Below, in pieces: positions 23,370 to 60,353 of a stretch of 64,000 nt of DNA. Source of the stretch: Candidatus Avispirillum sp. (GTDB lineage Bacteria > Bacillota > Clostridia > Oscillospirales > CAG-272); contig JAZORY010000001.1 in NCBI GenBank assembly GCA_045656825.1, positions 2,819-66,818 of the forward strand, written 5' to 3'. The notes beneath the pieces were generated by a model that was not told the origin of the DNA, ran no database searches, and saw only the letters and a list, made by a program, of their open reading frames with translations. Numbering within the stretch: position 1 is the stretch's first letter; every line of letters starts with the position of its first letter. Made by a program: the position numbers and the translations under genes.

Positions 23370-24140
23370 TTGTCGAAACCTATTATTATATCATTTGCAA
23401 ACCAGAAGGGCGGAGTTGGAAAGACAACCTCAGCCGTTAACGTAGCTGCTTGCGTGGCAGCTCTTGGATATAGAGTCCTTCTGTGTGATCTGGACCCTCA
23501 GGGTAACAGCACAAGCGGAGTTGGCGTAAATAAAAAGGGACTGCGCTATTCCATGTATGGAGCGCTTCTCGGATATTATGATCCCAAGCTTTCCGTTATA
23601 AAAACTGAATATTCCAATTTATCTATAATCCCTGCAACCATCGAGCTGGCAGGCGCGGAAATAGAGCTTCTTGAAATGGAGCATAGAGAGAGCGCTCTGA
23701 AGAGAGTGCTTGAGCCCCTCTATGATGATTTTGATTTTATCTTCACAGACTGTCCTCCTTCTCTCGGTATGCTCACGGTTAATGCTCTTTCCTGCTCTGA
23801 CGGAGTAATAATCCCTATGCAGTGTGAGTATTATTCTCTGGAAGGTCTGTCTCAGCTGATGTTCTCCATCAAAAAGGTTAAGCAGCTTTATAATAAGAGC
23901 CTCAGCGTAACCGGTATTCTTGTTACTATGTATAACGGCAGACTCAATCTTTCTGCGCAGGTTATGGAGGAATTGAAAAAATATTACAGCGACAAGCTTT
24001 TCAAGACTTCTATCACAAGAAGTGTTAAGCTGTCTGAGGCACCCAGCTTCGGCGAACCTATTTATTATCACGATAAATATTCAAAGGGCTCTCTTGCATA
24101 TATGAACGTTGCAAAAGAGCTTGTTGAAAGAGTAATGTAA
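23370..24140 (+). CDS. parA: Chromosome partitioning ATPase ParA/Soj
   Basis: Deviant Walker A KGGVGKTT. TTG start with GGAGG 7 nt upstream. Confidence 0.9.
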   Translation: MSKPIIISFANQKGGVGKTTSAVNVAACVAALGYRVLLCDLDPQGNSTSGVGVNKKGLRYSMYGALLGYYDPKLSVIKTEYSNLSIIPATIELAGAEIELLEMEHRESALKRVLEPLYDDFDFIFTDCPPSLGMLTVNALSCSDGVIIPMQCEYYSLEGLSQLMFSIKKVKQLYNKSLSVTGILVTMYNGRLNLSAQVMEELKKYYSDKLFKTSITRSVKLSEAPSFGEPIYYHDKYSKGSLAYMNVAKELVERVM

Positions 24141-24152
24141 GGGGGAAGCGTT

Positions 24153-25025
24153 ATGGCAAAGAAAACAGGTCTCGGACGCGGTCTTGATTTTATATTTGAC
24201 GATAATTCAATCGAGAGCGACGGAAGCGGAGTAACCACTCTTCGTATTTCAGACGTTGAACCCAAAGGTGATCAGCCCAGAAAGAATTTTGATAACGAAG
24301 CCCTTTCTCAGCTTGCCGATTCTATTGCGGCAAACGGAGTGCTTCAGCCCATTCTCGTTCGCGAGGTTGGCCGCGGATTTTATCAGATAATCGCAGGTGA
24401 GCGCAGATGGAGAGCATCCAAGCTTGCAGGACTTACTGAAATTCCCGCTATCGTTATGGAAGCTGATGATCTGAAAACAGCTCAGATTGCACTTATTGAA
24501 AATATTCAGAGAGAAAACCTCAATGCTTATGAAGAGGCAAAGGCATACAGAGCGCTTATAGATCAGTTTGAACTCACACAGGAGGACGTTGCAGGTCGTC
24601 TTGGTAAGTCTCGCAGCTCTATTGCAAACTCTCTTCGTTTGCTTGATCTCCCCGAGGAGATCTCCGATCTTCTTCAGAGCGATAAGCTCAGCGCAGGTCA
24701 TTGTAAGGCTCTTCTCGGTCTTCGCGACAGATCAAAGCTCAGAGCTCTTGCAGAAAAGATAATCAATAATAATCTTTCCGTTCGCGAGGCAGAGGCTCTT
24801 GTTCGTAAAGCTAATAAGCCTGAAAAATCAGACGAAGAGGAGATTGTTCCCCTTAAGGTTGATTACGTTGCCGAGCTTGAAAAGAAGGTAACGGGACTTA
24901 CGGGAAGATATTGTAAGATACAGACAAAGGGTCAGAGAAAGACCATCTCCATCGAATATGGCGGAGAAGGCGACCTTGAAAAGCTTCTTTCTATCCTCTG
25001 CGGTAAGGATATTACTGCTGAGTGA
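24153..25025 (+). CDS. parB: Chromosome partitioning protein ParB/Spo0J
   Basis: ParB box IIAGERRWRA. HTH region and C-terminal dimerisation region. Confidence 0.9.
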   Translation: MAKKTGLGRGLDFIFDDNSIESDGSGVTTLRISDVEPKGDQPRKNFDNEALSQLADSIAANGVLQPILVREVGRGFYQIIAGERRWRASKLAGLTEIPAIVMEADDLKTAQIALIENIQRENLNAYEEAKAYRALIDQFELTQEDVAGRLGKSRSSIANSLRLLDLPEEISDLLQSDKLSAGHCKALLGLRDRSKLRALAEKIINNNLSVREAEALVRKANKPEKSDEEEIVPLKVDYVAELEKKVTGLTGRYCKIQTKGQRKTISIEYGGEGDLEKLLSILCGKDITAE

Positions 25026-29740: not shown

Positions 29741-31142
29741 TTCACTCAGCCACGAAAAAGAGGAGTTTGTTCCCAATGAGCCCGGCAAGGTGTCTATGTA
29801 CACCTGCGGTCCCACAGTTTATCATTTCGCTCATATAGGCAATCTCCGCTCCTATATTATGGAGGACGTGCTTGAAAAGTATCTTCGCTACGTTGGATAT
29901 GACGTTAAGCGCGTTATGAATATCACCGACGTAGGACATCTCACAAGCGATGCCGACGAGGGCGAGGATAAAATGCTTAAGGGCGCAAAGAGAGAGAACA
30001 AAACAGTTCTTGAAATTGCAAAGTTCTATACAGATGCTTTCTTTGAGGATTGCCGCAAGCTTAATATCAAGCGCCCCGACGTTGTTGAGCCTGCAACAAA
30101 GTGCATCGGCGAATTCATTAAGGTTATTAAGGGCCTTCTTGAAAAGGGATATGCTTACGAGGCAGGCGGAAATATCTATTTTGATACATCCAAGCTTGAT
30201 AACTACTATGCTTTCCACAACTTTGAGGAAGAGGACCTTCAGGATGGCGTTCGTGAGGGCGTTGAGAAGGACGAAAATAAGAAAAATAAGGCAGACTTCG
30301 TTCTTTGGTTCACAAAGAGTAAGTTTGACGATCAGGAGCTTAAGTGGAACAGCCCCTGGGGCGTTGGATATCCCGGCTGGCATATTGAGTGCTCCTGCAT
30401 TTCAATGAAGCACCTTGGCGAATATCTTGATATCCACTGCGGTGGTATTGATAATGCATTCCCTCACCACACAAACGAGATCGCCCAGAGCGAAGCATTT
30501 GTTGGTCATAAGTGGTGCAATTATTGGTTCCACGTTCTGCATCTTAACACAAACAGCGGTAAGATGAGTAAGTCAAAGGGAGAATTTTTAACAGTTTCTC
30601 TCCTTGAATCCAAGGGCTATGATCCTATTGTTTACCGTTTCTTCTGCCTCCAGTCTCATTACAGAAAGAGCCTTGTGTTCTCCTATGAGAATCTTGATAA
30701 TGCAAAAATCGCATATGATAAGCTGATAGCAAGAATCGCTCAGCTCAATCCCGGCGAGGCAAACGAGGCAAACGTGGCAGAGCTTTGCCGCGGCTTCGGT
30801 GAGGCTATGGATAACGATATGAACACGTCCCTTGCCGTAACTGCTATCTACGATATTCTTAAGACAGATGCTGCCGATGCAGATAAGCTTGCAGCTCTTG
30901 ATAAGATCGACTACGTTATGGGCCTCAATCTTCTTTCTGCCGCTGCAAAGGTAAGAGAGGCTAACGCTATGTCCAATATCGATCCTGAGCTTCTTTCTAA
31001 GATCGAAGCGCTGATTGCAGAGCGTCTTGAGGCTAAGAAGGCTAAGGACTATGCAAGAGCAGACGAGATCCGCGGCGAGCTTACAGCTATGGGCGTTGCT
31101 ATTAAGGACACTAAGGACGGCACGGAGTTCAAGCTGGTATAA
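29727..31142 (+). CDS. cysS: Cysteinyl-tRNA synthetase
   Basis: HIGN and KMSKS class I motifs. The ATG at 29727 is preceded by GAAGGAG. It overlaps the CPBP gene end by 14 nt. Confidence 0.95.
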   Translation: MKLYNSLSHEKEEFVPNEPGKVSMYTCGPTVYHFAHIGNLRSYIMEDVLEKYLRYVGYDVKRVMNITDVGHLTSDADEGEDKMLKGAKRENKTVLEIAKFYTDAFFEDCRKLNIKRPDVVEPATKCIGEFIKVIKGLLEKGYAYEAGGNIYFDTSKLDNYYAFHNFEEEDLQDGVREGVEKDENKKNKADFVLWFTKSKFDDQELKWNSPWGVGYPGWHIECSCISMKHLGEYLDIHCGGIDNAFPHHTNEIAQSEAFVGHKWCNYWFHVLHLNTNSGKMSKSKGEFLTVSLLESKGYDPIVYRFFCLQSHYRKSLVFSYENLDNAKIAYDKLIARIAQLNPGEANEANVAELCRGFGEAMDNDMNTSLAVTAIYDILKTDAADADKLAALDKIDYVMGLNLLSAAAKVREANAMSNIDPELLSKIEALIAERLEAKKAKDYARADEIRGELTAMGVAIKDTKDGTEFKLV

Positions 31143-31471
31143 TGGATCAGAGAAGATTTACCAAAAACGATAACGGCTTTGTTTGCGGACATTGTGGCAA
31201 GGAGGTTGAGCCTCTTGGATACACGTCGAGAAACCATTGTCCGTTTTGCCTCTGGTCGCGCCATCTGGATGAAAATCCCGGAGACCGCGCAAGCGAGTGT
31301 ATGGCGCTGATGGAGCCTGTTTCAGCTGTTCCCGATGCGAAAAAAGGATATATAATTATCCATAAATGCACAAAATGCGGAGCGATCCGCAGAAATAAAG
31401 CAGCACACGAGGCAAAGGTCCAGCCTGATAATATGGCTAAGATCATTAAGCTGACAGCTAAAACGTTATAA
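31142..31471 (+). CDS. RNHCP-domain zinc-ribbon protein
   Basis: Contains the literal SRNHCPFC motif plus CGHCG and CTKCG pairs. Its ATG overlaps the cysS TAA by 1 nt. Confidence 0.7.
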   Translation: MDQRRFTKNDNGFVCGHCGKEVEPLGYTSRNHCPFCLWSRHLDENPGDRASECMALMEPVSAVPDAKKGYIIIHKCTKCGAIRRNKAAHEAKVQPDNMAKIIKLTAKTL

Positions 31472-31503
31472 AAATAGGGGGAGATTAAAATCCCCCTATT
31501 TTC
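31471..31503 (+). terminator. Intrinsic terminator
   Basis: AAAATAGGGGGA-loop-TCCCCCTATTTT. Confidence 0.8.
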
Positions 31504-31524
31504 TGTTATTTATTGGGAGGATAT

Positions 31525-31743
31525 ATGGAAATCAAAAAGGGAATATATCGTCATTTCAAGGGCGGAATATATGAGGTTGTAGATATTGCGCTTCATAGTG
31601 AAACTCTTGAGGAAATGGTGGTTTACAAAAGCGTTGAAACAGGGAAATATTGGGTTCGCCCTGCTTCAATGTGGAATGAAACGGTTGAATTTGAAGGAAA
31701 AACTGTTTCGAGATTCACTTTTGTTGAAAAAGGGATGGACTAA
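31525..31743 (+). CDS. DUF1653-like small protein
   Basis: 72 aa. IYRHFKGGIYEV...YW.RP..MW is typical of DUF1653. GGGAGG lies upstream of the ATG at 31525. Confidence 0.6.
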   Translation: MEIKKGIYRHFKGGIYEVVDIALHSETLEEMVVYKSVETGKYWVRPASMWNETVEFEGKTVSRFTFVEKGMD

Positions 31744-31807
31744 TATGCAAAAAACGTCTTTTTTTGCATAAAAGTTAGCATAATGTTGATAATAATTGCA
31801 AAAATAG

Positions 31808-31836
31808 TTGAAATTTGTAAATAAATTTAGTAGAAT
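31808..31836 (+). promoter_or_regulatory. Sigma-A promoter upstream of the esterase/ATP-grasp genes
   Basis: TTGAAA (31808-31813), a 17-nt spacer, then TAGAAT (31831-31836). This leaves a 5' UTR of about 117 nt. Confidence 0.6.
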
Positions 31837-31959
31837 AAAGTATCGCAGAGTATTTTGCGGTGCTTCTTATCCCGCGCGGCAACTTGTGCATTATTTTATG
31901 CATAGCTTGTGCTCCTTGCAGGGTATTATATACTGACTTTGATTTGAAGGAGTTTTGTT

Positions 31960-59014: not shown

Positions 59015-59685
59015 GATATGAAAAAATACTAAAAGCAAAGTTTATTTCCCGCCCAAACCGTTTCATCGCTTATTGTGAGCTTGAGGGCGAGGAGGTTGTT
59101 TGCCACGTCAAAAATACTGGAAGGTGTAAGGAATTGCTTATACCTGATGCAACGGTTATATTAACTGACGAAAGGGAAAACAAAACGAGAAAAACGCCCT
59201 TTGACCTGATATCAGTTTACAAGGGAGAGCGACTTATAAATATGGATTCTCAGGCACCGAACAAGGTGGCAGAGGAGCTGATGAGGCGCTTGTATCCTGA
59301 GGCGAAAATACGCCGAGAGGTAACCTACGGTCAATCACGAATAGACCTTTATATTGAAAACGGAGAGGAAAAGATATTCGTTGAGGTCAAGGGGGTAACT
59401 CTTGAGGTTGACGGAGTGGCAAAATTTCCCGACGCTCCTACGGAGAGGGGGATAAAGCATCTTCGGGAGCTTGAAAGAGCTGTTTCCGAGGGATATAGGG
59501 CAATAGTGCTCTTTGTCATTCAGATGAAGGGGATCGAATATTTCGTGCCCAACTGGGATACTCATCCTCAGTTTGCAGATGCACTATCGGAGGTCAGCAA
59601 AAACGGAGTAGAGGTTTGGGCGTACGACTGTCAGGTGCAGGAGGGCGTTGTAATTGCAGATGAGCGAGTTGAGGTCAGAATCTGA
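59011..59685 (+). CDS. sfsA: Sugar fermentation stimulation protein SfsA
   Basis: 224 aa. F..R.NRF...C N-terminus and EVK...L PD-(D/E)xK-like core. It overlaps the GH31 stop by 4 nt. Confidence 0.88.
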   Translation: MRYEKILKAKFISRPNRFIAYCELEGEEVVCHVKNTGRCKELLIPDATVILTDERENKTRKTPFDLISVYKGERLINMDSQAPNKVAEELMRRLYPEAKIRREVTYGQSRIDLYIENGEEKIFVEVKGVTLEVDGVAKFPDAPTERGIKHLRELERAVSEGYRAIVLFVIQMKGIEYFVPNWDTHPQFADALSEVSKNGVEVWAYDCQVQEGVVIADERVEVRI

Positions 59686-59763
59686 ATGATTTTTCAACGG
59701 AAAGTTTTTGTTAAAAATCAACAAACTTGAAAAAATACCCAAAAAGGACTTGACAAGTCGCAT

Positions 59764-59896
59764 AGTTTTCCACAACCTGTGGAAAACTATGTTGAAAACT
59801 CAAAAAGCCTTTGAAATCAAGGGTTTTGGAATAACCTATCGATTTGGTGGATTGTGGAAAACTTTTTGACGGGTAATATTGTTAAAAAGTGGAAAA
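59764..59896. promoter_or_regulatory. Cluster of DnaA-box-like 9-mers
   Basis: The 9-mers are TTTTCCACA (59766-59774), TGTGGAAAA (59778-59786), TGTGGAAAA (59853-59861) and AGTGGAAAA (59888-59896). The first two form the perfect palindrome AGTTTTCCACA-ACC-TGTGGAAAACT. The first three fit TTWTNCACA; the fourth has one mismatch. Confidence 0.55.
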
Positions 59897-59925
59897 TAGC
59901 AATATGTAGAATTTCTGCTAATTAA

Positions 59926-59959
59926 CGAAAAAGCACTTGACAAATCAAGTGCTTTTTCG
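59926..59959. terminator. Bidirectional terminator-like stem-loop, 1 of 3
   Basis: CGAAAAAGCACTTGA-CAAA-TCAAGTGCTTTTTCG. This is a perfect 15-bp stem with A5/T5 flanks. Confidence 0.6.
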
Positions 59960-59962
59960 CAG

Positions 59963-60003
59963 AAAAAAGGGCCTTTCCCGGCGTGGTCAAAAGGTCCTTT
60001 TTT
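59963..60003. terminator. Bidirectional terminator-like stem-loop, 2 of 3
   Basis: AAAAAAGGGCCTTT-13-nt loop-AAAGGTCCTTTTTT, with one G-U pair. Confidence 0.55.
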
Positions 60004-60008
60004 GCATC

Positions 60009-60027
60009 AAGCGGCGTTTTGCCGCTT
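60009..60027 (+). other. Short GC stem-loop, 3 of 3
   Basis: AAGCGGC-GTTTT-GCCGCTT. Confidence 0.5.
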
Positions 60028-60167
60028 AATTTGAGTATATGCGAAAAGGTGTTAAATAATTCAGTCGAAATTACGAACATTGTGTAAATTAACCAAATTC
60101 AAAAAGAATTTCACTTATTTTCACACATAATTCACAAATAAACAGTATGATGATAGTGTAGAAAGGA

Positions 60168-60353
60168 GTGATAAAAAAGGTGAGCGAAAAGCTTATCAAC
60201 AGCATTGTTCTCAGTCGCATTAAGAAGGCTGAGGATGATGGCGACGTTGAGATGCTCAGAGAGCATTTGAAAAGCAATTACGACGTTGAGGTGCACCGTG
60301 CGGTGTACGAGGCATTTATGAGAATGGGAATAATAACCGCAGAAAATAATTAG
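60168..60353 (+). CDS. Hypothetical small protein (57-61 aa)
   Basis: AAAGGAG abuts the GTG at 60168. An in-frame GTG at 60180 is an alternative start. The product is predicted helical and charged. A strong terminator follows. No family was recognised. Confidence 0.4.
   Translation: MIKKVSEKLINSIVLSRIKKAEDDGDVEMLREHLKSNYDVEVHRAVYEAFMRMGIITAENN

Follow-up and report, generated by a model that had tools for sequence, protein, structure and literature searches.

In a 64,000-nucleotide stretch of a Candidatus Avispirillum genome (the window), a 482-bp non-coding gap carries a cluster of DnaA-box-like 9-mers that is conserved among related Clostridia together with a 57-aa gene lying downstream of it, and whose 25-bp palindromic core recurs, base for base, beside dnaA in unrelated bacteria. 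On balance, the cluster is probably an extra-origin DnaA-binding module and acts as the control region upstream of a small transcription unit that is itself conserved. Its most likely effect, as judged from sequence comparison, would be to link expression of the small gene to the replication state of the cell. In model bacteria, DnaA regulates transcription as well as being an initiator subject to titration. To our knowledge, almost nothing is known of its roles in uncultured gut Clostridia.

Among the genes of the window are glycogen genes, parA/parB (23370–25025), serS, cysS and infB. Neither dnaA nor dnaN was found within the 64 kb, as a preliminary description of this DNA had already stated. 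GC skew is positive across the whole window, including both flanks of the cluster, and shows no switch; by this measure, oriC lies beyond the left end of the window, with parA/parB situated 35 kb from the cluster. The 482-bp non-coding gap is followed by the 57-aa gene and then by genes for a HAD hydrolase, PmbA and TldD (opposite strand), the genes that flank the gap being convergent rather than divergent. A second stretch, a seeming 817-bp gap at 31143–31959, houses two small ORFs; the part after cysS (31142–31743) encodes two proteins, one of 109 aa that is Cys-rich and zinc-ribbon-like and one of 76 aa, and seems a large gap only when ORFs of fewer than 120 aa are disregarded.

The box cluster and the gene that it accompanies

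The elements of the cluster, including putative DnaA boxes a to d, are as follows, with positions counted from the first nucleotide of the window.

59761–59791, no strand assigned: perfect palindrome of 14+3+14 nt, CATAGTTTTCCACA-ACC-TGTGGAAAACTATG
59766–59774, plus strand: DnaA box a, TTTTCCACA, one mismatch from TTATCCACA; 9/9 columns invariant in eight lineages
59778–59786, minus strand: DnaA box b, whose minus strand reads TTTTCCACA; 8/9 columns invariant
59790–59798, minus strand: weak DnaA box c, whose plus strand reads TGTTGAAAA; 8/9 columns invariant
59853–59861, minus strand: DnaA box d, inside the invariant TGTGGAAAACTTTT
59880–59896, minus strand: two weak overlapping box-like 9-mers, TGTTAAAAA (59880–59888) and AGTGGAAAA (59888–59896)
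59765–59774 (minus strand), 59778–59787 (plus strand) and 59853–59862 (plus strand): copies of the exact 10-mer TGTGGAAAAC

The four 9-mers that the preliminary description had reported all lie where it placed them, and the first three hold as boxes. It overlooked a fifth and invariant element, box c, which lies 3 bp past the second box, and the last of its four 9-mers reads ATGGGAAA in most relatives and is not conserved as a box. The palindrome that it gave as 59764–59788 is indeed perfect but was drawn too short, each arm being 14 nt long; in alignments, the conserved core of the palindrome is AGTTTTCCACA-N3-TGTGGAAAACT. Boxes a and b face each other head-to-head, separated by 3 bp of variable sequence, and box c is in tandem to box b, likewise at 3 bp. 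The resulting a–3 bp–b–3 bp–c arrangement falls within the 2–3 bp that define a closely spaced pair, and its spacing is invariant in eight lineages. When a DnaA box is defined as a 9-mer with no more than one mismatch from TTATNCACA, boxes a, b and d qualify with one mismatch each (all three being TTTTCCACA), and box c has two. In L013, box c is TGTGGAAAA. Box d, a further strong box lying 63 bp downstream and surrounded by several weak ones, reads TGTTGAAAA in L006 and L115.

The exact 10-mer TGTGGAAAAC is present three times within 98 bp and nowhere else in the window, an exact search having confirmed what had been noticed by inspection. With up to one mismatch, it has 13 matches in the window vs 3.9 ± 2.0 in shuffled sequences, and none of 100 shuffles reached 13. 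In approximately 96 kb of related loci, it occurs only once outside the element. For the relaxed consensus TTWTNCACA, the window as a whole shows no enrichment (7 matches vs 5.3 expected), but three of the seven are within 96 bp at the cluster. Within the 482-bp gap, there are three 9-mers that differ from TTATCCACA by at most one base, vs 0.13 expected from the remaining window.

The comparison set consisted of eight related lineages of Candidatus Avispirillum-like Clostridia, all bearing the small gene and reached from the HAD side. Approximately 480 nt of non-coding DNA lie upstream of the small gene in all eight, and the gene on the other side of that stretch is sfsA in L006–L010, mscL in L011 and L116, and an S11 peptidase gene in L115. 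At sfsA loci that lack the small ORF, as in several relatives, a gene for an MFS transporter directly follows sfsA and the motif is absent. Since the element keeps to the small gene while the upstream neighbour changes, it belongs to the small gene and not to sfsA. The proposed link between the cluster and the small ORF is thereby borne out across three upstream neighbours; on the other hand, the regions downstream of sfsA orthologues, where conservation of the boxes was to have been sought, proved uninformative, with the transporter gene there in several relatives and the element on the small-ORF side. Synteny breaks exactly at the 3' end of sfsA (window 59685–59700; L001, L004 and L005), and in those Avispirillum-like genomes that have the transporter gene after sfsA, the small-ORF/HAD/PmbA/TldD block is found elsewhere, beside mscL.

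Compared with boxes a to c, the sequences between and before them vary, the spacer between a and b being invariant in 0/3 columns, that between b and c in 1/3, and the 7 nt preceding box a in 0/7. Invariant 9-mers with varying spacers and flanks form the pattern of a protein-binding site. The lineages are fairly close and part of the invariance could reflect limited divergence, an explanation that is disfavoured because the spacers vary. In the most distant lineage, L115, whose small protein is 56 % identical, box b is TGTTGAAAA; with this change, the hairpin that the palindrome can form is lost (-5.3 vs -20.5 kcal/mol) and a box-like 9-mer is kept at equal spacing. Such a substitution reads as the signature of half-sites recognized by protein and not of an RNA stem.

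The cluster could alternatively be a DnaA sink or chromosome-organizing cluster, comparable to E. coli datA or the oriC-proximal clusters of B. subtilis, that lowers the amount of free DnaA and is linked to the small ORF only incidentally. Its boxes are of the dnaA/oriC type, the presence of parA/parB in the window hints at an origin-proximal position, and B. subtilis clusters near oriC titrate DnaA in a dosage-dependent manner (PMC3245932). This reading is nevertheless unlikely, as only three boxes are within one mismatch of TTATNCACA; B. subtilis DnaA-box clusters have 4–12 boxes each. By the density–affinity score of Ishikawa, for which the published weights are those of B. subtilis and the threshold is A > 0.3 over four successive boxes, the cluster reaches A = 0.033, or, by hand calculation, 0.14 when box c is included, vs >0.3 at all eight B. 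subtilis stable sites; a value of 0.45 is obtained only if TTTTCCACA is given the top weight. Additionally, a sink would explain neither the conservation of the whole 480 nt, with its hairpins and promoter-like blocks, nor the strict linkage to the small ORF. Because the cluster fails the B. subtilis density criterion, a regulatory role appears more likely than titration. In the original suggestion of a titration or regulatory site, the identity of the boxes and the connection to the small ORF have found support, and a sink of the datA or DBC type is argued against. The same density score also picked out 31763–31896, which was rejected as a set of degenerate A/T-rich matches adjoining the two small ORFs there.

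The palindrome in other bacteria

When a metagenome collection was scanned with AGTTTTCCACANNNTGTGGAAAACT (22 specified bases), the exact 25-bp palindrome was encountered at at least 100 loci, in samples from termite gut, human gut, soil and water. The matches listed de-replicate to 48 sequence families. In 24 of these 48, as judged with query sequences that served only as detectors in the metagenome loci, the palindrome stands beside dnaA, dnaN or rpmH: 17 families have it within 400 bp of dnaA, four within 3 kb, and three next to dnaN or rpmH; in most of the other families among the matches listed, the flanks are too short to judge. The distance to dnaA in the 17 families, which are unrelated to each other, is 27–280 bp. 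A third box occupies the same position in 12 of the 100 loci listed, 10 of the 12 being next to dnaA; one of these third-box loci, L097, carries TGTTGAAAA. Relaxed boxes are enriched approximately six-fold within ±200 bp of the palindromes among the matches listed. In unrelated bacteria, the palindromic module recurs as a building block of dnaA/oriC regions, and this recurrence provides strong, albeit indirect, evidence for taking DnaA as the ligand. The identification of the 9-mers as DnaA boxes, which had been advanced from the window alone, is thus strongly supported by comparison, both by the return of the 25-bp pair at dnaA/oriC and by the invariance of the boxes amid varying spacers and flanks.

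A fortuitous resemblance to DnaA boxes would have to be assumed if the TGTKGAAAACT repeats were the operator of some other transcription factor encoded elsewhere. The conserved unit is 11 nt long (AGTTTTCCACA) and so exceeds a 9-mer, and TGTTGAAAA is invariant even though it departs from the DnaA box at C6, a position that is normally critical, both of which would suit another factor. However, a lineage-specific regulator would not yield the recurrence of an exact 25-mer beside dnaA, dnaN or rpmH in half of the independent families among the matches listed, spread over unrelated bacteria, and this account is therefore improbable. A locally encoded regulator, the possibility that the preliminary description had set against its own reading, finds no candidate, as no regulator gene adjoins the element in any relative.

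Several of the metagenomic copies merit description in their own right. In a large group of the matches listed, the gene order is rlmH-htrA-parB-dnaA-dnaN, which we take to be Streptococcus-like, and the pair is just upstream of htrA. At L018:6739–6763 and approximately 39 similar loci among those listed (e.g. L024, L038 and L039), it precedes htrA by about 70 bp and lies at a distance of 2.3 kb from dnaA, and in such L018-type loci it is immediately followed by TTAAG-N-ATTAAG repeats, which resemble CiaR-type boxes. Based on this placement, htrA-parB in these loci may be under DnaA control. At L027:1376–1470, there are three tandem palindromic pairs (AGTTTTCCACA/TTATCCACA-ACC-TGTGGAAAACT), each followed by CCAAC, and they adjoin a gene matching the podovirus DNA-encapsidation protein Gp16; here, a phage may be recruiting or titrating the DnaA of its host. 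Copies away from dnaA (L019:2309–2333, L034:8483–8507, L095:7899–7923, L046:5852–5876 and L069:1206–1230) have neighbours that are mutually unrelated, namely DUF488, a STAND NTPase, RNase J, tilS and a SpoU methylase. Having unrelated neighbours in different bacteria agrees with a report that extra-origin DnaA sites are species-specific.

A literature search found no paper describing an inverted pair of DnaA boxes with a 3-bp spacer. Majka and colleagues, in a Streptomyces study of 2001, reportedly dealt with facing boxes at 3-bp spacing. The head-to-head 3-bp pair may represent a unit by which DnaA recognizes dnaA promoters across phyla and which has so far been under-described, and its wide distribution in dnaA/oriC regions could be used to improve the prediction of origins and DnaA regulons.

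The remainder of the gap and the small protein

Beyond the boxes, the gap and the start of the transcription unit contain the following features.

59707–59725, no strand assigned: inverted repeat TTTGTT-N7-AACAAA, in an A/T-rich tract upstream of the boxes; arms kept in eight lineages
59749–59757, plus strand: CTTGACAAG, with a perfect -35-like TTGACA (59750–59755); 8/9 columns invariant
59803–59827, plus strand: hairpin H2, which folds in all lineages with differing stems
59899–59914, plus strand: GCAAWATGTAGAATTT, with a -10-like TAGAAT (59907–59912); 14/16 columns invariant even when L115 is included
59926–59959, plus strand: hairpin H4, confined to the window and the L007 group; its 15-bp stem is perfect
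59963–60003, plus strand: hairpin H5, the stem of which varies by lineage and always pairs
60006–60030, plus strand: hairpin H6, G+C-rich (GCGGC...GCCGC), then TTNNTTT; terminator-like
60031–60060, plus strand: promoter-like P2, TTGAGT-18-AATAAT; conserved in 7/8 lineages
60117–60136, plus strand: direct repeat TTCACA-N5-TTCACA, invariant, at the small-ORF promoter
60120–60148, plus strand: promoter-like P3, TTCACA (60120–60125)-17-CAGTAT (60143–60148)
60180–60353, plus strand: the 57-aa gene, starting at GTG and preceded by the ribosome-binding site GGAG (60165–60168)

The assignment of promoter function to any of these elements is predictive and constitutes the weakest step in the argument. 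No convincing sigma-A promoter adjoins the boxes. A canonical promoter reading from the TTGACA at 59750 was rejected, as its -10 site, located 17 bp further on at the a/b box junction, would be CAACCT (59773–59778), which matches a -10 hexamer at A2 and T6 alone and is weak at best; the 7 nt that follow CTTGACAAG are invariant in 0/7 columns. For TAGAAT, a scan for conserved promoters gave no -35 at normal spacing, the sole candidate being TTAAAA, 19 nt upstream. A sigma-H reading of AGTGGAAA...GTAGAAT, made by eye against the consensus, was likewise discarded, its spacing being 1–2 nt short and the AGGA core missing. Of the promoter-like elements, P2 and P3 suit the small ORF best; they are 250–350 bp downstream of the strong boxes and past the terminator-like hairpins.

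Signals for other factors were also considered. The TTCACA repeat has a geometry like that of response-regulator sites, and it can also be read as two weak box-like 9-mers that are 2 bp apart (ATTTTCACA-CA-TAATTCACA). Within the A/T-rich tract, the left-arm region of TTTGTT-N7-AACAAA reads TGTTAAAAA, a weak DnaA-box-like 9-mer, and TTTTTAACA at 59709–59717 is one mismatch from TTWTNCACA; this inverted repeat could serve another factor, and TTGTTAAAAA recurs at 59879–59888. A candidate Spo0A box, CAGTCGAA (60064–60071), was dismissed, as it is CAGTCAAA in L116 and CAGTAACA in L115. Operators of the parS, CodY, CcpA and Rex types were set aside after comparison by eye with their motifs, the half-site geometry fitting none of them.

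The segment 59750–60060 folds markedly better than its shuffled counterparts (z = -8.6), and the two strands behave similarly (z about -8). H2 is terminator-like in some lineages (e.g. AAAAAAGCCTTAT-AAA-TAAGGCTTTTTTT in L011), has one base pair that is altered on both sides in three sequences, and contains G-U pairs that favour the plus strand (window, L007). H4 embeds a second conserved TTGACA (59937–59942), invariant in the alignment and without a -10. The 13-nt loop of H5, CCCGGCGTGGTCA (59977–59989), is invariant among the seven closer lineages; it holds a GTGGT, which RNAalifold pairs with the invariant GCCGC in the 3' arm of H6 (60021–60027), and the loop and the arm could form an alternative pairing or pseudoknot. 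When RNAalifold is applied to the whole gap, the covariation term is positive (i.e. a penalty) and compensatory changes appear in only five pairs; given so little overall covariation, RNA structure is supported for H2, H5 and H6 individually and not beyond them. Rfam returned no match at the gathering score in the window or in five homologous loci, only sub-threshold chance matches. Judging from the folding, a structured transcript, either a leader or a small RNA, is likely to be produced from the gap.

The palindrome itself might then be viewed as a hairpin, of RNA or single-stranded DNA, within a structured non-coding RNA or leader, its likeness to DnaA boxes being secondary. The strength of its stem, the better-than-shuffled folding of the segment, and the conservation of its neighbours H2, H5 and H6 with changed stems are all compatible with that view. 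The arms of the palindrome, however, are invariant and show no covariation, pairing is what L115 has lost and box-like sequence is what it has kept, no U-tract follows the stem, and both strands fold about equally. With no Rfam match and with the same palindrome in oriC regions elsewhere, a hairpin function is very improbable. The oriC-type boxes, the adjacent A/T-rich tract and the hairpin-forming box pair might point to an additional origin, be it a second, relic or displaced one, or to a hairpin for DnaA-dependent primosome loading. Such a role is extremely improbable, given that the flanking genes are convergent, the locus is single-copy and tied to the small gene, no conserved run of DnaA-trio-like (TAR) triplets was seen by eye, and oriC or a second origin at the cluster is ruled out by the switchless positive skew on both sides together with the absence of dnaA and dnaN from the window.

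The small gene is a real coding gene, in that changes at third codon positions dominate; the differences among lineages number 511 at third, 266 at first and 142 at second positions. Its product belongs to a tiny family, with seven proteins in a collection of 5.8 billion sequences and six representatives when clustered at 50 %. The protein resembles a single HEAT-like repeat, and its AlphaFold model is a three-helix bundle (pLDDT 80). The sequence has no match in Pfam, NCBIfam or the PDB, and the three-helix model has no fold match. These absent family, PDB and fold matches exclude a homologue of Sda, a protein of approximately 46–52 aa whose structure we take to be PDB 1PV0.

Proposed mechanism and known systems

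In the regulatory reading that we favour, the core of the module consists of three 9-mers at 3-bp spacing, TTTTCCACA and TGTGGAAAA head-to-head and TGTKGAAAA then in tandem. DnaA, probably as a dimer or oligomer of ATP-DnaA, would nucleate on the strong boxes and occupy the region, and its occupancy would alter transcription of the downstream unit, i.e. a structured leader or small RNA (H2, H5 and H6) and/or the gene for the 57-aa three-helix protein. We infer the binding of DnaA at the cluster, and the direction of control would depend on which promoter is used: repression is to be expected if transcription starts from a TTGACA promoter over boxes a and b, and activation, as at sda, if it starts from the TAGAAT element, which lies downstream of the boxes.

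A bolder version of this hypothesis, which we regard as quite doubtful, is that the locus constitutes a self-contained sensor of replication status in a Clostridia lineage that lacks Sda, i.e. an independently arisen analogue of the DnaA-to-Sda pathway. The occupancy of the triple box by DnaA would then control the structured leader or small RNA as well as the 57-aa protein, and the latter would act as a checkpoint effector on the cell cycle or development. If the small protein were indeed such a replication-coupled checkpoint factor, the Sda paradigm would reach beyond Bacillus.

Extra-origin control by DnaA has been documented in B. subtilis, where DnaA activates sda and represses ywlC and yydA via box clusters (PMC2533591, PMC3245932, PMC4447404), and the B. 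subtilis dnaA gene has also been reported to be DnaA-repressed. At the sda promoter of this organism, direct control by DnaA couples replication status to a developmental decision (PMC4447404, PMC2533591). As at sda, boxes lie upstream of the small gene and are conserved together with it, here in eight lineages and next to three different upstream neighbours. Like DBC[yqeG-sda], the present cluster is off oriC and upstream of a very small gene (57 aa in this case). Unlike at sda, the small protein is no Sda homologue, the sites are fewer than the eight predicted there, conserved hairpins intervene between boxes and gene, and control by DnaA is a prediction.

The in vivo targets of DnaA in E. 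coli are mainly box pairs with 2–3 bp between the 9-mers, and such pairs are the functional unit of its binding at regulatory targets (Stringer, Fitzgerald and Wade 2024, PMC11317965), the double-box search motif having been made by joining boxes in tandem (PMC11317965). Boxes b and c are just such a tandem pair with 3-bp spacing; the difference is the extra head-to-head box contributed by the a/b arrangement. The arrays at dnaA promoters and oriC, which act as an autoregulation operator, share the identical 25-bp module and often the same third box among the matches listed, but dnaA, dnaN, rpmH and a GC-skew switch are not near the Avispirillum copy. The cluster also recalls E. coli datA and the oriC-proximal clusters of B. 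subtilis as an extra-origin group of boxes that is possibly origin-proximal (PMC3245932); unlike them, it has a box number and density that are too low by the published B. subtilis criterion, and its linkage to a gene and to RNA-like structures is strict. As a probable extra-origin site of DnaA regulation, the locus represents a known arrangement in a new place, what is mildly novel being the orphan three-helix protein with its structured non-coding stretch and the cross-phylum occurrence of the inverted 3-bp pair. By bringing together a three-box module identical to that of dnaA promoters, a structured stretch and an orphan protein, the locus offers a compact, conserved and testable case to set beside those of the model bacteria.
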